Source: a virus
Taxonomy: Duplodnaviria; Caudoviricetes
Direction: 5' to 3' (one strand)
IMG/VR virus record: IMGVR_UViG_3300032257_000088
Coordinates: 1 to 24,924 of that record
DNA length: 24,924 nt
A program made the translations under genes and the position numbers. Positions 2,974-12,928 of the stretch are shown here, piece by piece; positions within the stretch are counted from its first letter, which is position 1; every line of letters starts with the position of its first letter. Below the pieces are notes generated by a model, which saw only the letters and a list, made by a program, of their open reading frames with translations, was not told the origin of the DNA and searched no databases.

Positions 2974-3256
2974 TAATTAGCTCCTGTACTTGTTTTAATA
3001 GTTCAGCCTGAGTACCGTATAGTTTTTCCCATTGCGCCCTGCCTGCGTGTAATGCGACACCATAGCCACCATTCCTGTGGTGATTCGGGCAAAGAGGAAT
3101 CGTTTTAAAGTGACAGTCAGGCTTACGACAGCCATCCATGTGATGTGGCTCTGCTGGCGAATAGATCGCAAATTCATTAGCACATACGCAACACCCTGAT
3201 TCGCAGATTTTATCTAACCACTCGCGTTCCGCTTTGTTGGGTTTTCTTCCGTTCAC
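2966..3256 (-). CDS. Ref-like (recombination enhancement, RecA-dependent) HNH-family nuclease
   Basis: CxxC..PAEPHH...IPLCPNHHR.G..GVALHAGR..WEKLYG pattern. Likely start is GTG 3256, overlapping the upstream TGA (GTGA coupling), rather than 3289. Confidence 0.7.
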   Translation of the reverse strand: MNGRKPNKAEREWLDKICESGCCVCANEFAIYSPAEPHHMDGCRKPDCHFKTIPLCPNHHRNGGYGVALHAGRAQWEKLYGTQAELLKQVQELINA

Positions 3257-3750
3257 GCTGGCCGTCCATGATTCTTGTGATATCCACACTCTTCTTCTGC
3301 TGTTTTTCTAGCAATAACCGCATCATCAAAACTTGAAAATGAACCTATTGTTTTTGTTTTTCTATTTACTCTGACCTGAACCGCCCACTTGTTTCTGTCT
3401 CTTCTCCAGTAAACCCCTGTCACACCAGAATTATTATCTGATCTAATGCATTTATTCTTTGCGTTTATTTCCTTGCTTACCGATCTTAAATTTATCCATC
3501 GATTATCTGTTTTAATGCCATTGATGTGATCCGCGTGAACAGGAGGCAATCTTCCGGTCATATATAAACAAGCCAATCTATGCAATCTTTCAGATTTATA
3601 GTCAATAGTTAGGCGCAAATAACCTACAGAGTCTAGATGACCGGCTGCGCTCCCTGCTTTTATTCTATTTGCGTTTGGCTTTATCCAAGTAAATATCCCA
3701 GTTTCTGGATCGTAGTGAAGTAGCTCTTTGAGTCGGTTTTGAGTAAGCAT
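3253..3750 (-). CDS. Free-standing HNH homing endonuclease with C-terminal AP2 DNA-binding domain
   Basis: 'LKELLHYDPETGIFTW', 'HRLA..Y', 'DHINGIKTDNRWINLR' (HNH_3) and 'NNSGVTGVYW....KWAVQV......IGSF..FDDAV.ARK.AE' (AP2). RBS GAGG. Confidence 0.92.
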   Translation of the reverse strand: MLTQNRLKELLHYDPETGIFTWIKPNANRIKAGSAAGHLDSVGYLRLTIDYKSERLHRLACLYMTGRLPPVHADHINGIKTDNRWINLRSVSKEINAKNKCIRSDNNSGVTGVYWRRDRNKWAVQVRVNRKTKTIGSFSSFDDAVIARKTAEEECGYHKNHGRPA

Positions 3751-3842
3751 ATTAACCTCAGTATGGTTATCAGTAATTATTGAAGCGGCAGAGGTGATAC
3801 TGTGTCACCCTTTTCGGTCGCTAAACCTAGCCTGAGAAATAT
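3751..3842 (-). ncRNA. Structured 5' leader of the HNH gene (3-way junction plus RBS-occluding hairpin)
   Basis: Minus-strand stems GGC(T)AG/CTGCC, GGT/ACC and GGTGA/TCACC. The hairpin TAACC-ATACTGA-GGTTA covers the RBS. Confidence 0.55.
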
Positions 3843-6218: not shown

Positions 6219-7027
6219 TTTTTATCTCCTGATTCATAGTACGCTTTGCGTAGTTCTTCTTTCATAATTCGACGTTCTTCTGTTGTGAATATACCGCCCT
6301 TTGTCGGTGCGACCCATAAGCTTTTTTGCTCATCTTGTGACAGCTCAAACCATGCCTCACCAGCAGAATATAGGTCGTTATCGCGAATACCATGCTTAAC
6401 CGCTACGATGGTGTCAAAATGCTTTCTGATAGCATCTTGAAGGGCTGCCAGATTAACTGTGTGACCGTCTGTGTCCTCATCAGATGATGCTAGGCCAAGA
6501 GCTGCAAATAATGTATATCGTTGCAGGTAGGACACTGTAGATCCGACAGCCTGAATACTGTTCTTACTGCCCGATGTATCTGGCTCTCCAGTTAATGTCA
6601 CGCTTTCCTCATGGCCTCCAATATGAGCTACAATACAAGTAACAAGCACATAACCATCGCTATCTTTACCAGTTGTCCATCGGTGACTAATGCCGTTGTC
6701 CGCCATAATATCTTTGATCTGGTCAATACTTTCAGCTAATCCTGCATACTTGCAGTTATGGCCTGATTTTGTCTTAGTGACAGCAGGGCAAGCCTTACGA
6801 AAGTTATTCATAGCCACAACATATTGTTTCTTGGCTTCGTTGGCTTCGTATTCTTTCTTAAGCGCCATTAATTCTTTCAGGCTTTCTACATCGGTATTGC
6901 CCGATTGAATGAACATGGCCAATAAATCAGGCTGTCCATTTGACTGCATTGGTATTGCACTACCGACATTAGTAACTTGCCTAAACTCACCTGTTTTGAT
7001 TGTTTCTACGTCTGTTTTATCATTCAT
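6215..7027 (-). CDS. erf: Erf-family single-strand annealing protein
   Basis: 'KYAGL..SID.IK......GIS', 'VTCIVAHIGGHEES' and 'NSIQAVGSTVSYLQRYTLFAALGLASSDEDTDG'. Confidence 0.9.
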   Translation of the reverse strand: MNDKTDVETIKTGEFRQVTNVGSAIPMQSNGQPDLLAMFIQSGNTDVESLKELMALKKEYEANEAKKQYVVAMNNFRKACPAVTKTKSGHNCKYAGLAESIDQIKDIMADNGISHRWTTGKDSDGYVLVTCIVAHIGGHEESVTLTGEPDTSGSKNSIQAVGSTVSYLQRYTLFAALGLASSDEDTDGHTVNLAALQDAIRKHFDTIVAVKHGIRDNDLYSAGEAWFELSQDEQKSLWVAPTKGGIFTTEERRIMKEELRKAYYESGDKK

Positions 7028-7246
7028 TATATTCTCCTGTAATATTATTTAGCTGGTAAACTCAAAGAATACGGTAGCTTCGCCAGTCTCTTTGACTGTT
7101 GTTACAATATTAGGCTCAAGGCAGTCTGAATGTACCACCATGCAGAGCATAGGGCGCTTAATCTTAGCTACCGTGTATTCGTTCCAGAATTCGTACATTT
7201 CTGGGTCTTTACTCTGTGTTACTGTGTAAATCATTATATTCTCCTG
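7024..7246 (-). repeat. 16-bp perfect direct repeat (RBS+start) at 7024-7039 and 7231-7246
   Basis: CAGGAGAATATAATGA on the minus strand precedes both the 61-aa ORF and erf. Confidence 0.85.
7049..7234 (-). CDS. Hypothetical protein
   Basis: 61 aa, strong RBS AGGAG. Confidence 0.7.
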   Translation of the reverse strand: MIYTVTQSKDPEMYEFWNEYTVAKIKRPMLCMVVHSDCLEPNIVTTVKETGEATVFFEFTS

Positions 7247-7498: not shown

Positions 7499-7695
7499 TA
7501 TTCCGTCTCCTTAAATATTCCATATCGCTTCATAATCTGATGCAATATATTAATCCCATCGGTCCCGTCTATTTCACGCTTTGGCGGTTTGTCATACATA
7601 TCGCAGCCATCCATGATAAGACTTTCAAAATCAACGCAATCAAAACAAGCGCCATCTCTTAGCTCTAATTTTCTACCGCATACTTTACAGCTCAT
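7498..7695 (-). CDS. Small zinc-ribbon-like protein
   Basis: CKVC...CFDC. RBS GAGG. Confidence 0.65.
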   Translation of the reverse strand: MSCKVCGRKLELRDGACFDCVDFESLIMDGCDMYDKPPKREIDGTDGINILHQIMKRYGIFKETE

Positions 7696-7726
7696 CTCTC
7701 TATCCTCTGGTTAATTAAAATAAGGG

Positions 7727-7912
7727 TTAAGGCTTAGCTTGCCTGTGCTTTATATTAAATTCAGCATCACCTATCTGTCTCTTTGCTACCTGTCTTAGCC
7801 GATTTAGTGCTCTATGCATTTCGTCTGGGGTGTAATTCTCTACGTTAGAAATGATAATATTTAGCTGCTCTTTAAAGTATCTATCATCTAGACCGTATTC
7901 GTTATATGCCAT
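7727..7912 (-). CDS. Hypothetical protein
   Basis: Start more likely ATG 7912 (MAYNEY), which follows RBS AGGAG. Confidence 0.65.
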   Translation of the reverse strand: MAYNEYGLDDRYFKEQLNIIISNVENYTPDEMHRALNRLRQVAKRQIGDAEFNIKHRQAKP

Positions 7913-7944
7913 CTTTATCTCTCCTATTAAATACATAATCTATC

Positions 7945-8312
7945 TAATGACCGTAGGACACCTAGCCCTATCTTTTACCTACAGCCTTGTAAGCAATACA
8001 TAAATATAAATCAATTATCAGAAACCTTTCATCAATCCTTGATTGCTAGGCCAAGCCCCTACGTGTCACTAAATCTGTTTTCTTCCGTAGCTCCGGTCTA
8101 AAGAGCTGATTTATAGTAAGCTATTAACAGATAGCCGCTTATGCCAAACAATAACCGCCTGTAACGGATAGATGGCTTGCAGAGTATTCAAGTGTTTACT
8201 TGATTAGTTGTATTACTAGAGGGATATGATTTATAATTGCCTTATCGACAAGTTGGAATCGTATTAACCCAATCATTAAATACTTCTGACGACCCTGCAA
8301 GGTCACCGATAA
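7945..8312 (-). ncRNA. Candidate ~370-nt structured non-coding RNA / leader
   Basis: Long gap without a sizeable ORF, downstream of a consensus promoter. Hairpins GACC-TTGCAG-GGTC and AGCTC-TTTAGACCG-GAGCT. Long-range stems TGAC/GTCA, CGTAGG/CCTACG and CCTAGC/GCTAGG. Confidence 0.5.
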
Positions 8313-8317
8313 AACTA

Positions 8318-8346
8318 ATTATACGCCTGTTTCCTGACTAGCTCAA
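8318..8346 (-). promoter_or_regulatory. Sigma70-type leftward internal promoter within an inverted repeat
   Basis: TTGAGC-N17-TATAAT on the minus strand, flanked by ACGCCTG/CAGGCGT. Confidence 0.65.
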
Positions 8347-8365
8347 GATTCAGGCGTTTTTATTT
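8323..8365 (+). terminator. Terminator-like hairpin on the strand opposite to the early-left genes
   Basis: ACGCCTG...CAGGCGT followed by TTTTATTT. Confidence 0.4.
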
Positions 8366-8593
8366 ATAGATATGAAATGCCGGCATATCTTCACTACAAA
8401 CAACCCTTCTGCCTGTTGCTGTGATTGAAAACAATTCTCCATCCCATTGCCATTCCAAAATAGCTGAGCTGCTAATATGATCTGGATGTGATTGTTCGTG
8501 CGATGGAGAAGCGTAAATTTTACCGGCCTTCTTGACCATATATACAAACTTTTCTCTTGATGTTTCTTTATCTTCAATCATTAATTCGCTCAT
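8360..8593 (-). CDS. Hypothetical protein
   Basis: 77 aa, overlaps the end of the upstream ORF. Start 8593 or 8581. Confidence 0.6.
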   Translation of the reverse strand: MSELMIEDKETSREKFVYMVKKAGKIYASPSHEQSHPDHISSSAILEWQWDGELFSITATGRRVVCSEDMPAFHIYK

Positions 8594-8837
8594 AACTCAG
8601 GCCTCTCTTCTTCATTTGTGGTAAAATATACTTATCAAGGCGGCCATAGCAATCTTGAGCAATATCGTCGATTGTAGGTGATGCCATGATTCCCATGCTT
8701 AAATCTATCCAGCCGGTTGCGTCATCAAACGAATGTAGTATTTGCTGGTCTGATTTACGATCCCAGATGGCGTATATCTGTCTATTTGCCACTTTATCTG
8801 GCAAAAAAGGTAATATAAAAAACGGTAGTCTAATCAT
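8574..8837 (-). CDS. Hypothetical protein
   Basis: 87 aa, RBS AGGAG. Confidence 0.65.
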   Translation of the reverse strand: MIRLPFFILPFLPDKVANRQIYAIWDRKSDQQILHSFDDATGWIDLSMGIMASPTIDDIAQDCYGRLDKYILPQMKKRGLSYERIND

Positions 8838-8866
8838 CCTTCTATCTCCTATCTATAGGTTAGGGG

Positions 8867-9058
8867 TTAGTCTTCAAATACGAAGGCGTTATTCTGTTCA
8901 CATAGCCTGCCAACCACTTCAACCAGATGATTATGCTTTTCCATCAGTAAATCGAAATTACGTGGCGTTAGATCAATAACTGTTTTCATGTCGTAACCAT
9001 CAGGCTCCATGTGTGTATCAGGGAAATCCCATGCGGTTAATTCTTTTGGTCTCTTCAT
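8867..9058 (-). CDS. Hypothetical protein
   Basis: 63 aa, ATGA coupling. Confidence 0.65.
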   Translation of the reverse strand: MKRPKELTAWDFPDTHMEPDGYDMKTVIDLTPRNFDLLMEKHNHLVEVVGRLCEQNNAFVFED

Positions 9059-9345
9059 TTCAAATCATCCTTATAAACAACTTTAAACTTCTTAGCCTGA
9101 TCGCTATCAAGCCCCATAATCTCAGCTACTTGATAATGCTTCTTACCTGCTTTGATATTACAGGTATAAGCAAAGAATTCTGATGATCTGCGAAACTTAA
9201 CAAGGTCTGACTCGTATTGTTCAGCACACAGACCGGCCTTATCATCCGCAAAGCCTAGTATCTCGCATAAGTCCTGATGACCCATACCAAGGTTGCGGTT
9301 ATGCTCGTATGCCGTGTAGGTGAGGCTGTCTAGTATTTGATTCAT
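9055..9345 (-). CDS. Protein with two tandem HTH-like repeats
   Basis: Two ~37-aa units (AYEHNRNLGMGHQDLCEILGF.. / AYTCNIKAGKKHYQVAEIMGL..). RBS AAGGAG. Confidence 0.6.
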   Translation of the reverse strand: MNQILDSLTYTAYEHNRNLGMGHQDLCEILGFADDKAGLCAEQYESDLVKFRRSSEFFAYTCNIKAGKKHYQVAEIMGLDSDQAKKFKVVYKDDLK

Positions 9346-9357
9346 TCTCTTAACTCC

Positions 9358-9537
9358 TTAACTCGCCTGTACTTTCAATAGCGCACATTGCTCCATACGC
9401 TCTCTTAACCGCTTTGCTTCTGCTAGTGCATCAGCTGGGTTCATTACCTCACTATCTTCATCACCTGAACCTTCTGGCGGCTCTTTATCGATGTAGTAGC
9501 CTGAGTCGTAATCACTTTCTGCGTTGATTATGCTCAT
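9358..9537 (-). CDS. Acidic hypothetical protein, 59 aa (not in ORF track)
   Basis: MSIINAESDYDSGYYIDKEPPEGSGDEDSEVMNPADALAEAKRLRERMEQCALLKVQAS. TAATG coupling, GGAG upstream. Confidence 0.65.
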   Translation of the reverse strand: MSIINAESDYDSGYYIDKEPPEGSGDEDSEVMNPADALAEAKRLRERMEQCALLKVQAS

Positions 9538-9662
9538 TATTTACACTCCACTCGTTCATCTTGATACAGGTTGTAGCATATTTCCTGATTTGGCTCATAG
9601 TCATTTGAAAACTCTGCATAAGCCAGAATGATGATTATTAGTATTATTAGTCCTTTTCGCAT
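9537..9662 (-). CDS. Small membrane/exported protein, first gene of the leftward operon
   Basis: Start ATG 9662 after AGAGGAG. MRKGLIILIIIILAYAEF hydrophobic N-terminus, two Cys. Confidence 0.65.
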   Translation of the reverse strand: MRKGLIILIIIILAYAEFSNDYEPNQEICYNLYQDERVECK

Positions 9663-9690
9663 CTTCTTATCTCCTCTGTCTATGGCTATC

Positions 9691-9719
9691 AATATAGACC
9701 TATCCTTATGCCGTGTCAA
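9691..9719 (-). promoter_or_regulatory. Major leftward early promoter (PL-like)
   Basis: TTGACA-N17-TATATT on the minus strand with an AT-rich upstream tract (9720-9770). Confidence 0.75.
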
Positions 9720-9754
9720 CTATAATACACAAAATAAATTAATTAATTATTTTC

Positions 9755-9787
9755 TTTACTTTCTTATAAAAGTCATTACACTATAGT
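9755..9787 (+). promoter_or_regulatory. Probable rightward early promoter (PR-like)
   Basis: TTTACT-N16-TACACT, with an alternative -10 TATAGT at 9782-9787. Lies before the first rightward gene. Confidence 0.4.
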
Positions 9788-9815
9788 ACATAGTCAACGA
9801 AAAGGAAAAATAAAG

Positions 9816-10034
9816 ATGAGTAATGAAGTAGGTATTTTGTTTGATAAAGCGCAGCGTATGGCGCGAGGCACAGGATTAAAGGTAAACGATCTTGAGCGCA
9901 TAACCAGTGAGGACAGAGGCTGGATTCGCAAGTTCTTAAATAATGAGATTGCAGACCCCGGCTCTATTCGATTAGAGGGATTTATCAGGGATATAAAGAA
10001 ATACAATGTTGAGAAAAGGAAGGGTAAGAAATGA
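9816..10034 (+). CDS. Small Cro/XRE-like HTH regulator
   Basis: 72 aa, first rightward gene. 'LKVNDLERITSEDRGWIRKFLNNEIADPGSIRLE' fits the XRE/Cro HTH pattern. Confidence 0.6.
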   Translation: MSNEVGILFDKAQRMARGTGLKVNDLERITSEDRGWIRKFLNNEIADPGSIRLEGFIRDIKKYNVEKRKGKK

Positions 10035-10261
10035 TTAAATTACCAGAGGATAAAAACAAGATAAAATCCCAAGACCTGGTTGCTGGTGATATTGCTCTTA
10101 TTAGCAGCGACGGTGAAAGGCATATTGTTTACATGACGGATTTTTCAGAGGGTAGACGGTTGTTTTCTTTGACGGCTCAAAAAAAATGGCATCCAGCGGG
10201 TTTTATTGGCATGGATGTAATCAAGGTTTATAAATCTGGCGATAAATTGGAGATAGCATAG
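10031..10261 (+). CDS. Hypothetical protein
   Basis: 76 aa, ATGA coupling. Confidence 0.65.
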   Translation: MIKLPEDKNKIKSQDLVAGDIALISSDGERHIVYMTDFSEGRRLFSLTAQKKWHPAGFIGMDVIKVYKSGDKLEIA

Positions 10262-10452
10262 TGATCTGTTTGCAAACAACCGACAAAGTAGAGGCTAAGA
10301 CTTTCGAGCATTACAAAAGGATGCTTGAAGTAGGTCACATACCGCAATGGCTAGTTGATCACATGACGGCCTATGTAAGAGCCTATAAAATGAAGCATAA
10401 CGACGAGCTACCCTCTTTTATTGACGTTATACATGGTGATAGTGATGAGTGA
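10261..10452 (+). CDS. Hypothetical protein
   Basis: 63 aa, GTG start overlapping TAG, RBS GGAG. Confidence 0.6.
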   Translation: MICLQTTDKVEAKTFEHYKRMLEVGHIPQWLVDHMTAYVRAYKMKHNDELPSFIDVIHGDSDE

Positions 10453-10867
10453 GCAGGATATAACAGATGATGAGATTAAAGATTTATTTACCCGTATTCA
10501 GCATAATCTATCGCAGGTAGAAATTGATTACCGCCAGATAGGCAAGCCGTGTGACGCATGGCAATACGCATTCGGGGGCTCTGATCTAAGGTTGATAGCT
10601 AAACTAATCGCCCACTACAACCGCACCCGTGATATGCAGTGGGTGAGTGTAGAGGATCGATTGCCGGAAGATAGATCTTTTGTCGATGTTTGGTGTGGGG
10701 CGGAGCGATGGTCAGATATTGAGTTTGCAAATGGCGTTTTTAGCCATCTGGTGGTTGATGATGACGGGGATTATTCTTATTCTGTTGATATAAATCCTAC
10801 CCATTGGATGCCTCTACCAACCCGCCCTACTCAGGACGAAGGAGTGAGTGATGGAAGAGTTGATTAA
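10445..10867 (+). CDS. DUF551 (Eaa-like) domain protein
   Basis: C-terminal 'QWVSVEDRLPE...PTHWMPLP'. Likely start ATG 10445. Confidence 0.75.
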   Translation: MSEQDITDDEIKDLFTRIQHNLSQVEIDYRQIGKPCDAWQYAFGGSDLRLIAKLIAHYNRTRDMQWVSVEDRLPEDRSFVDVWCGAERWSDIEFANGVFSHLVVDDDGDYSYSVDINPTHWMPLPTRPTQDEGVSDGRVD

Positions 10868-10958
10868 TCATTTTATATTAGTAGTTCTACTGGTGATAAG
10901 TCACTTTATGATGTTTGCTGGCGGTTACTGGTTTCATAAACATGTTATTAAAGACTAA
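10851..10958 (+). CDS. 35-aa single-TM peptide (not in ORF track)
   Basis: MEELINHFILVVLLVISHFMMFAGGYWFHKHVIKD. RBS AAGGAG. Confidence 0.6.
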   Translation: MEELINHFILVVLLVISHFMMFAGGYWFHKHVIKD

Positions 10959-10981
10959 CCACCACACAGGAGAAGGGATAG

Positions 10982-11164
10982 ATGAGTGAAATTAAAAAAC
11001 TTACCAAACATGAGCATAACTGGGCAGTTTTTAAAGACGGTGTTCAAGTAGATGCTCTGGTAACAATCGATAAAGTATGGCGATTATGGAAAGACAATAT
11101 CAATTACGCGCCAGAAGAAAGAAAAGTAATTAACGATAAGCTGGAAGAGCTTAACGGGCTTTAA
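10982..11164 (+). CDS. Hypothetical protein
   Basis: 60 aa, RBS AGGAG. Confidence 0.65.
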   Translation: MSEIKKLTKHEHNWAVFKDGVQVDALVTIDKVWRLWKDNINYAPEERKVINDKLEELNGL

Positions 11165-11189
11165 CCCCAACCAACAGAGAGAAAGAGAG

Positions 11190-11393
11190 ATGAGTATTAA
11201 GACAGTTATAAATTGCGATGGAGCAGGATGTTATACAGAGTATGAGTATGACGGTAGTGATTATATTACCGATATTACACAAAAAGGTTGGATTCATATT
11301 CCAAGCGAAGAAACCGATTATTGCCCTAGGTGTAAACCTGTAGTTATTAAAGAGCTTAAAGAAGAAAACGAGGGTGTCGAGTACATCGACTAA
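11190..11393 (+). CDS. Small zinc-binding protein
   Basis: CDGAGC...GW......DYCPRC. Confidence 0.65.
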   Translation: MSIKTVINCDGAGCYTEYEYDGSDYITDITQKGWIHIPSEETDYCPRCKPVVIKELKEENEGVEYID

Positions 11394-11433
11394 CCCCTAC
11401 CCCTAACAAAGACTAGATAACGAGGTGAGAAAT

Positions 11434-11685
11434 ATGAGTGAATGGATATTAACAATCGAACAGCAGCCGCCATTTAATGAAAAATTATTATGCACTGTTA
11501 TAGGCGATAAGACACAAACACCGCCACCACGCAGGACAGCAATATGCTTTTTAAAGTCAATAAAAGCTGACGGCCTATATTTTGAAGAATGGGATGATTA
11601 CCATGAAAGCTATTTTGAAGTTGATGTTATTGCATGGCAATTATATCCAGAACCATACGATGGCGAAATAAAAACGCCAGCTTGA
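11434..11685 (+). CDS. DUF551-like protein
   Basis: 'MSEWI.....PP...VIAWQLYPEPY'. RBS GAGGTG favours ATG 11434. Confidence 0.65.
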   Translation: MSEWILTIEQQPPFNEKLLCTVIGDKTQTPPPRRTAICFLKSIKADGLYFEEWDDYHESYFEVDVIAWQLYPEPYDGEIKTPA

Positions 11686-11709
11686 AATTAATCAGAGCTG
11701 GCGTATAAT
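11682..11709 (+). promoter_or_regulatory. Sigma70-type promoter for the replication genes, within an inverted repeat
   Basis: TTGAAA-N16-TATAAT flanked by ACGCCAGCT/AGCTGGCGT. Confidence 0.65.
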
Positions 11710-11715
11710 ATTAGG

Positions 11716-11866
11716 CATCAGGTACGACTTGAAACCGGACTTGATATTTTGTTATTGGGATTAGACCACCATAGCAAACTGAACAACCGAGAATAGTAAG
11801 GGTTAATATGTGCTAGTTGGGGTTCTCGGCTCCGGTCTAAAGCTAGCAACATATTAACCCTTTTTT
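11716..11866 (+). ncRNA. Attenuator-like leader RNA of the replication initiator (c4/P4-CI-like layout)
   Basis: TTAGACC (11761-67) and CCGAGAA (11787-93) are complementary to GGTCTAA (11834-40) and TTCTCGG (11823-29) in the loop of a long hairpin. Confidence 0.6.
11798..11866 (+). terminator. Long large-loop terminator hairpin upstream of the initiator
   Basis: AAGGGTTAATATG-TGCTAG ... CTAGCA-A-CATATTAACCCTT followed by TTTT. Confidence 0.7.
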
Positions 11867-11880
11867 GTGGAGCAAATAAA

Positions 11881-12582
11881 GTGGATAACGGATGGGTGAA
11901 AGCCCATAGAAAACTAATAGAATGGGAATGGTACGATGATTCTAAAATGGTTCATCTGTATTTGCATTGCCTATTAAAAGCCAATCACAAGCCCAATAAG
12001 TGGCGCGGCATTGTTATCGAATCAGGCCAGTTTGTGACCTCGTATAACAAGCTATCTTGTGAATTACCTATGACGGTACAGCAAATTCGCACATCATTAA
12101 ACAAGCTAAAATCAACAAGCGAATTAACAATCAAATCAACAAGCAAATATTCAATAATATCAATAACTAACTGGGATTCGTACCAGCAAGATAACAAACA
12201 AACTAACAATCAAATAACAAACGATCAACAATCAAATAACAAACAAGTAACAACAAACAAGAATGAAAAGAACAAAGAAAAGAAGGGGGTAAAAAGATTT
12301 ACCCCGCCCTCTCTTGATGAGATCCAAGGTTATATCACAGAGAAAAACTATACTGTCATTGCAGAACGGTTTTTAAACCATTACGAGTCAAACGGCTGGA
12401 TGGTTGGTAAAACTAAGATGAAAGACTGGAAAGCAGCGGTAAGAAACTGGCATTCACGAAATAAGGATAAACAGCATGAAGAAAATCAGCGACCTAGCAC
12501 CACAAGATCAGCGCGAGTTATCAACAAACTCGACGAAATCACCAGACGCGACATTGAAGAAAACGGAATGCCAACCGATTAG
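11881..12582 (+). CDS. Phage replication initiator (O/DnaD-like organisation)
   Basis: N-terminal 'GWVKAHRKLIEWEWY.D...HL.LHCLLKANH...GQFVTS...LS......QQIRTSL.KL', an N/Q/K linker, and C-terminal 'FTPPSLDEI..Y....AERFLNHYESNGWMVGKTKMKDWKAAVRNW'. Confidence 0.85.
   Translation: MDNGWVKAHRKLIEWEWYDDSKMVHLYLHCLLKANHKPNKWRGIVIESGQFVTSYNKLSCELPMTVQQIRTSLNKLKSTSELTIKSTSKYSIISITNWDSYQQDNKQTNNQITNDQQSNNKQVTTNKNEKNKEKKGVKRFTPPSLDEIQGYITEKNYTVIAERFLNHYESNGWMVGKTKMKDWKAAVRNWHSRNKDKQHEENQRPSTTRSARVINKLDEITRRDIEENGMPTD
12192..12258 (+). repeat. Iteron-like 11-bp repeats (probable replication origin)
   Basis: Units TAACAAACAAA, TAACAATCAAA, TAACAAACGAT, CAACAATCAAA and TAACAAACAAG. The 18-mer AACAATCAAATAACAAAC occurs at 12205 and 12227. 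Confidence 0.7.
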
Positions 12583-12928
12583 ACACGCATGGATAGCTCA
12601 AATATTTAAAAAGTTTCAGGTTCGCTATGGTCACAAGTGGTCGAGCTTTATTGATGGGATCGAAGAACTAGCGGTTCAGGAATGGTCTGAGCAGCTCTCA
12701 GGGCTTACAGGTGACGAGATTAAGTACGGACTTGATACATGGAAAGAAGACTGGCCGCCTAGCTCTGTAGAGTTCGTTAAATGCTGCAAACAGCAATCAG
12801 GCGCATGGCAGCACAACACAGCGGCCTACAAAGAATACGTTCCAAGAGATCGCCAATTAACCCACAAATGCGACCCTGAGAAAGCAGAGAGTGCAATTAA
12901 ACATATGAGAAAGGAGATAGGATTGTGA
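12476..12928 (+). CDS. Lambda P-like helicase loader / replication protein
   Basis: Follows and overlaps the initiator. 'IFKKFQVRYGHKW.......W...L.GLT..EIKYGL......WPPS..EF...C'. Confidence 0.65.
   Translation: MKKISDLAPQDQRELSTNSTKSPDATLKKTECQPIRHAWIAQIFKKFQVRYGHKWSSFIDGIEELAVQEWSEQLSGLTGDEIKYGLDTWKEDWPPSSVEFVKCCKQQSGAWQHNTAAYKEYVPRDRQLTHKCDPEKAESAIKHMRKEIGL

Follow-up and report, generated by a model that had tools for sequence, protein, structure and literature searches.

The early region and its two leaders

The window analysed here is the whole linear record of a virus of the Caudoviricetes (Duplodnaviria; IMG/VR record IMGVR_UViG_3300032257_000088; 24,924 nucleotides (nt)), which is 39% complete. 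Its early region is lambdoid-like in layout, and each of the two early arms begins with a predicted non-coding leader RNA. These two leaders are the subject of this report: the right one is likely a compact RNA attenuator of the C4/CI type, which would gate the replication initiator, and the left one carries a hairpin, at a distance of 3.7 kb, that is complementary over 14 nt to the terminator loop of the right one. The left arm encodes ERF, a NinB-like DUF1367 protein and nucleases, and the right arm encodes a DnaD-like initiator, a P-like loader, SSB and the small terminase. The initiator-like gene (11881-12582, plus strand), with a DnaD-like or replisome-organiser N-terminus, matched phrog_2514 (E 4e-35) with PF09681 below cut-off, and the gene of the P-like helicase loader (12476-12928, plus strand) matched phrog_109 (E 3.5e-6). 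An earlier note on this DNA had described the arms as transcribed in opposite directions, and the divergence was confirmed: the arms part at about 9720-9815, and no repressor-sized gene lies between them. An open reading frame (ORF) at 9816-10034 resembles small helix-turn-helix proteins (score 0.93, 155 shared features), which is a lead only. The lack of an evident CI, also pointed out in that note, holds for the 39%-complete fragment and is not claimable for the missing part of the genome.

Both leaders follow a promoter-like site set in an inverted repeat with an A-run, each site being a consensus match only. The right one (11666-11709, plus strand) has a -35 TTGAAA at 11682 and a -10 TATAAT at 11704-11709, and the left one (8318-8365, minus strand) has a -35 TTGAGC at 8346-8341 and a -10 TATAAT at 8323-8318. 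The sister promoters that had been proposed were recovered as AAATAAAAACGCC...GGCGTATAAT promoter-like hairpins preceding both leaders. The inverted repeats with their 5' A-run (8324-8365 and 11666-11703) also resemble intrinsic terminators when taken on the opposite strand. Promoters of this type occur as well in the genomes G003, G004, G005 and G007, where they head different leaders.

The right leader ahead of the initiator

The right leader is the best-supported element of the region. It is a predicted RNA of about 150 nt (11716-11866, plus strand; fold z -3.5) between the promoter-like site and the initiator gene (rep), with homologues in the loci L004, L005, L008, L239 and L316. Folding gives an upstream hairpin at 11748-11778 that shows the target word b1 (UUAGACC, 11761-11767), followed by the predicted open, single-stranded target a1 (CCGAGAA, 11787-11793). 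A terminator-like outer stem with a U6 tract (11798-11866) then encloses the inner helix P3 (11819-11822 paired with 11830-11833), the word a' (UUCUCGG, 11823-11829) in the P3 loop and the word b' (GGUCUAA, 11834-11840) directly 3' of P3, where a' is the complement of a1 and b' is the complement of b1; all of these are on the plus strand. The cis complementarity of GGUCUAA with UUAGACC, already noticed before, was confirmed and extended from one word to two (a1:a' and b1:b'). When nascent RNAs of different length were folded, those with an end at 11830-11850 had a1:a' paired, and from 11855 onwards the terminator was the favoured structure. No downstream target, as an exact complement of at least 6 nt, was present in 11867-12120, the 250 nt past the terminator. 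The CUCC linker was also considered as an anti-Shine-Dalgarno element, which was dropped because CUCC forms the 3' side of P3 and varies together with the opposite strand. In our estimate, the right leader is very probably a real cis attenuator.

The words of this element change between phages, and their complementarity is kept. Two-word cis complementarity is present with different words in five other leaders, and collinear complementarity of 12-14 nt is present in all six distinct leaders, a level reached by 3-47 of 2000 shuffles. Bipartite complementarity equivalent to UUCUCGG with CCGAGAA was found in 6/6 leaders, including L309, which had been selected for it and is not independent because its detector required complementarity. 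Protein searches (initiator or loader) retrieved L004, L008 and L239, which have the same layout with words differing from those of the window (UUCGAC..AACGAAG, UUCAGAC..AACAA and UUUGAGC..UAAAUAG, respectively). A pattern without complementarity requirement retrieved L316 and L319, and L005 has the words of the window. The best fit of the loop was its own upstream region in five of the six rows. Helix P3 also varies on both strands among the leaders, as read from their sequences (GGGG/CUCC, GGAG/CUCC, GAAG/CUUC, GAGGU/ACCUC and CCGGG/CCCGG).

Such leaders are a minority of the loci scanned (211 loci, 2.8 Mb, many redundant; the detector missed L239). Model R1 gave significant E-values only for its own training leaders in 100 sources, and none in five bacterial genomes. 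A pattern scan of GTDB gave 120 loci, with no convincing leader among the matches listed, and an ERF search gave four distant loci, all without the leader. No homologue of either leader was found in the cultured phages searched, and such a leader was also absent from three regions of cultured phages that encode a related initiator. Another leader family was observed ahead of replication genes in L234 (5310-5432) and L091 (6040-6150), where GGACAG comes after a CUUGAUCA hairpin loop and the ribosome-binding region lies within a stem; a search of those records gave no trans partner for these leaders.

The organisation of the right leader was compared with known phage RNAs, above all those of the C4/CI kind, which are released by RNase P as RNAs of about 77 nt and act in trans by termination or a translational block. 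According to PMC5320573, C4 has three stem-loops with a' and b' and is processed by RNase P, and word variation between phages underlies C4 heteroimmunity (PMC5320573 and PMC12197685). In PMC2864571 supplementary file 5, the P1 row has an upstream loop UUGACAG with CUGUCAA directly after P3, and the P4 row has GUGAGAA / UUCUCAC. The right leader is like P1/P7 c4 (RF01695; c4-a1b1 motif) in that the word right after P3 (GGUCUAA, 11834-11840) complements the upstream hairpin loop (UUAGACC, 11761-11767), a second word lies in the P3 loop, and the words vary between phages. Unlike c4, it has no P2 (the window and four related hairpins were folded), its outer stem, with a U-tract at the end, would be a terminator in its own right, a downstream target (a2b2/seqC) was not found within 250 nt, the gated gene would be the replication initiator instead of icd/ant, and the opposite arm holds an extra site that covers a P3 strand. 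The Rfam models C4, c4-2 and c4-a1b1 gave no match at E<=1 over the window, or at E<=10 over either leader or L239 5800-9500.

P4 CI pairs with seqA and seqC and causes premature termination ahead of the P4 replication genes, as stated in PMC4825925. The right leader resembles it as a leader-derived RNA with targets on the same transcript and replication genes downstream, and the P4 rows share the layout. The difference is that CI is processed from within its leader and has a downstream seqC, whereas here the RNA is apparently the terminated leader. Gifsy-1 IsrK is similar in that a terminated short leader RNA acts in trans on its own read-through transcript, which is predicted here; unlike our leader, IsrK activates orf45-anrP translation, and it gave no Rfam match here. 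Taken together, the right leader appears to work like C4/CI, yet we do not file it as a member.

The left leader and the match between the arms

The left leader (7937-8311, minus strand; fold z -2.9) is a predicted non-coding RNA ahead of ORF 7727-7936, and its 3' part is homologous in L239 and L440. Folding and homologues indicate a long stem-closed structured RNA within it (about 7945-8075, minus strand). This structured leader (window 7945-8115 on the minus strand, L239 5870-6160, L440 9900-10142) is unknown to Rfam and has a long closing stem, a conserved AAGGAUUG hairpin and no U-tract terminator, and its long-range pairing differs between the two lineages. It looks like a switch of its own, in which the word after a conserved UGAUAA is complementary to a word further upstream that reaches into the base of a hairpin. 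In the window, the internal word UUGAUUUAUA (8005-8014, minus strand) is the complement of the upstream word UAUAAAUCAG (8106-8115, minus strand; a second copy of UAUAAAUCA lies at 8227-8235), and GUACAGACUAA and UUAGUUUGUAC pair at the same places in L239 and L440, so that the change of words is seen in two lineages only. The AU-rich left word of the window scores 8-9 of 11 against non-cognate words too, by a simple pair count. A CTCTGCAAGC-N10-11-CGTTACAG motif was also observed in the left leader of the window (about 8160-8190, minus strand); in L239 (7060-7090, plus strand) and L440 it is intergenic, in opposite orientation to the arm and ahead of a plus-strand terminator-like hairpin.

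The left hairpin (AGCUC-UUUAGACCG-GAGCU, 8089-8107, minus strand) carries the 14-nt complement (8090-8103) of the 3' strand of the right P3 plus b'. The hairpin to which the earlier note had drawn attention is the very one overlapped by the left-switch word (stem overlap 1-2 nt). Its core GCTCCGGTCTAAAG is present at 8090-8103 and 11829-11842, with no other copy in the record at up to one mismatch. As had been conceded, a repeated 14-mer in 25 kb is unremarkable alone: about two direct repeats of at least 14 nt are expected in the window, and six were seen. Display of the core in the left loop was borne out, with UUAGACC unpaired at a probability of 0.99-1.0. Placement of the right copy in the terminator loop stood for GGUCUAA (11834-11840), which is mostly single-stranded, but not for 11829-11833, which is paired, and 11830-11833 sits in P3 with a pair probability of 0.96-0.97. 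Only 7 nt are thus predicted open per side (UUAGACC on the left, GGUCUAA on the right). Because 11829-11833 is paired, the two loops would not pair over all 14 nt as such; the trans contact would begin as a kiss of 7 nt and proceed by strand invasion. The UUAG loops are presumably U-turns (YUNR).

A second contact had been suggested, in which TATTAACCC (8262-8270 and 11852-11860) would let the left RNA pair with the 3' arm of the terminator. We rejected it because such a match is expected by chance (0.26 between the leaders) and is costly to open, the opening in the terminator taking 15 kcal/mol against a duplex of -9.7.

The trans complementarity of the 14-mer is well above chance once the terminator loop is taken as a recognition element. 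Among 4,969 sequence windows on both strands, the left hairpin was the top partner of this loop, with a duplex of -29.7 kcal/mol against -22.8 for the next unrelated site, and none of 44 natural null segments (7 kb) reached it. All of 40 shuffled loops were weaker by energy, and 0/3000 reached a 14-nt exact match. For 14-nt matches to the terminator loop, the expected number is 4-6e-6 over the left leader (381 nt) and about 1e-4 over the left arm as a whole. The 15-bp trans duplex has -26.3 kcal/mol, compared with -3.6 and -11.4 for the two cis words, and about -10 kcal/mol remains once the cost of opening the two sites is taken off (-26.3 + 9.4 + 7.0). The loop word is common to the left hairpin and the native b1 hairpin, and the pairing to the recognition word is stronger than that of the native target, as would be asked of an RNA sponge. 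The cross-arm link is statistically strong and so far single-lineage, and we think that the trans pairing has probably been selected.

Readings of the cross-arm match

The proposal of the earlier note, an RNA circuit gating the initiator, agrees with the c4/CI analogy, but the primary switch is in cis, within the right leader. By the same analogy, the trans effector is likely the terminated right RNA itself, as for CI/c4, and the left RNA is better explained as a decoy or a third target than as the gate. The decoy is our leading reading, because the left hairpin carries the b1 word and the complement of the P3 3' strand, so that it would bind more strongly than either native word and unfold the terminated RNA. 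The full model, in which the left hairpin binds the terminated right RNA and favours read-through in this lineage only, is given a probability of roughly 0.4.

The steps of this model come from the CI/c4 analogy and from folding of nascent lengths. Firstly, cis pairing of a':a1 and b':b1 in the nascent RNA would trap the 5' arm of the terminator and allow read-through into rep. Secondly, terminated RNAs of about 150 nt would build up and pair in trans with b1/a1 on newly made transcripts, by which the lock would be blocked and termination enforced, a negative feedback as for P4 CI. Thirdly, the left UUAGACC would kiss b' and then invade P3, forming about 15 bp against 7 bp per native target word, and the inhibitor would be removed. 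The left contact would also unfold the hairpin overlapping the word of the left RNA's own switch. AsxR of the Stx2 phage offers a parallel, as a phage RNA that neutralises a regulatory RNA via its terminator stem-loop, which is here predicted; according to PMC12197685 the target of AsxR is the host Hfq-dependent small RNA FnrS, whereas here one phage leader would be bound by another and the bound one is C4-like.

Several results weigh against the decoy, and most of them concern conservation. A comparable loop-displayed non-coding trans site was found in 0/3 testable relatives (of the other six leaders, those of L004, L005 and L008 have upstream sequence too short for the trans test), and complementarity conserved or covarying in relatives, which a sponge should have, was not found. 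A full reading of the complete genome G006 (L239) gave no more than an 11-mer, and this lies within a coding sequence of the left arm (expected count 0.07 for the arm and 0.7 for the genome; p about 0.05; 2/44 nulls). L309 has no exact match of at least 8 nt in its 7.2 kb left arm, and its best duplex is marginal, interrupted and in coding sequence (2/44 nulls). In L316/L319 the same-strand matches do not exceed 9 nt, and the genes upstream run mostly in the same direction. L440 has the left RNA and no such right leader in 19.5 kb. The loop UUUAGUAGGCG of the L239/L440 hairpin, to which the window hairpin was aligned by structure (the MAFFT position is 13 nt further upstream), fits its own 3' flank at 9/10 positions and not the terminator loop of L239. 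The earlier note had named relatives that keep both regions and lose the complementarity as evidence against its circuit; this was partly found, as L239 keeps both homologues without a complementary left hairpin. In addition, when the complete left RNA was folded as a nested dimer with the terminated right RNA, by a method that cannot model kissing loops, the trans site was bypassed, and duplex energies, in contrast to word lengths, failed to single out the cognate cis pairs. The whole scan covered about 250,000 windows, and therefore rare coincidences will surface.

Variation around the two sites was also searched. An exact 14-mer scan over about 1/6 of a metagenome contig collection gave 118 loci, none with two copies or with the flanks of either site. 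Contigs of microbial-mat runs, four of the five runs being possible origins of this DNA, contain co-occurring variants in which 7916-8119 is replaced, and others with another leader after 11709; the variant pieces are unlinked, with 30 letters of each visible. The right variant was absent from the retrieved loci and viral contigs, and the left variant was absent from the retrieved loci, the only set searched for it. Run X4 listed no differing letter at either 14-mer site. Module swaps are many in the co-occurring variants (7915-8120, 9492-9611, 9656-11189, 10452-10614, 10671-10961 and 11709), and their breakpoints adjoin both leaders.

It is possible, though rather unlikely in our view, that the right attenuator is real and the left 14-mer has no trans function, being a coincidence or an unselected copy in the hairpin of the left cis switch. 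Such a copy would suit the three relatives without a comparable site and the swapping of both modules among variants. In L239/L440 the homologous hairpin has its partner in cis, and that of the window keeps a weaker cis partner at the same place (-9.3 against -13.9 kcal/mol). UUUAG is common to the L239 hairpin, and because of this 5 of the 14 nt predate the trans match. Against a coincidence, only 4-6e-6 matches are expected in the leader, nine further positions match even granting UUUAG, and the match is centred on the single exposed word in a hairpin whose stem differs from that of L239 on both strands.

The direction could also be reversed, which we consider improbable: the terminated right RNA would be the regulator and the left hairpin a third target, like a2b2 or seqC, so that the hairpin would be unfolded, the left switch reset and the recombination arm controlled. 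The left hairpin is built like the native b1 target and overlaps the covarying left word with 1-2 nt of its stem, the right leader lacks a target of at least 6 nt in the 250 nt after its terminator, and the marginal left-arm partners in G006 and L309 would suit mRNA targets. However, the a1-like half is poor at the left site (4 pairs only, after a bulge), no U-tract terminator follows the left stem, and pairing of the site with the P3 3' strand would destroy the fold of the regulator.

The original form of the proposal, in which the left RNA covers b' on the nascent right transcript and decides termination before rep, in its simplest form by blocking the cis lock and raising termination, is very unlikely. 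With the right RNA ending at 11845, the dimer fold does pair the left hairpin with 11828-11842 (ddG -8.3 kcal/mol), but b' would be out only about 20 nt before the terminator is complete, leaving a short time for a trans RNA, and the second contact is at chance level and buried. Hardly credible is a plus-strand RNA antisense to the left leader that shows GGUCUAA and mimics b' against the b1 loop: the palindromic hairpin folds on either strand and an inverted repeat (about 8324-8365) precedes a T-run on the plus strand, but 7617-8124 holds no plus-strand promoter-like site, the nearest lying downstream.

The cis element, which is absent from Rfam 15, would add to C4/CI-type control a form without P2 that is merged with a terminator and stands immediately before replication initiators of environmental phages, and its words change between phages like immunity determinants. 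The whole system is small, about 150 + 20 nt. In the literature searched, where older subscription papers are thinly covered, we found neither a P2-less terminator form nor a decoy for a C4-type RNA; the available part of PMC4825925 describes no decoy for P4 CI, and a motif set of 2017 including c4-2 (PMC5737381) may include a related motif. Should the left hairpin prove to be a decoy, two divergent operons would be linked without a repressor, by an antagonist of a C4-type RNA that the phage itself encodes. More speculative, and in our opinion doubtful, is that a repressor-free phage couples both early arms by RNA alone, with a swappable RNA switch per sub-operon and the left hairpin retuned to a dedicated anti-antisense, so that left-arm transcription would license the initiator. 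In that case the decoy could break the immunity of co-infecting phages with the same loop.

Some further features were observed in the window. A sub-threshold match to the Rfam int-alpA family (3787-3832, minus strand; 30.4 bits vs 35.8, E 0.01) lies ahead of an HNH gene (3253-3750). The 16-nt direct repeat TCATTATATTCTCCTG occurs at 7024-7039 and 7231-7246, across the ribosome-binding sites and starts of two left-arm genes. Within the initiator gene, iteron-like AACAA-rich direct repeats are present at 12096-12248.

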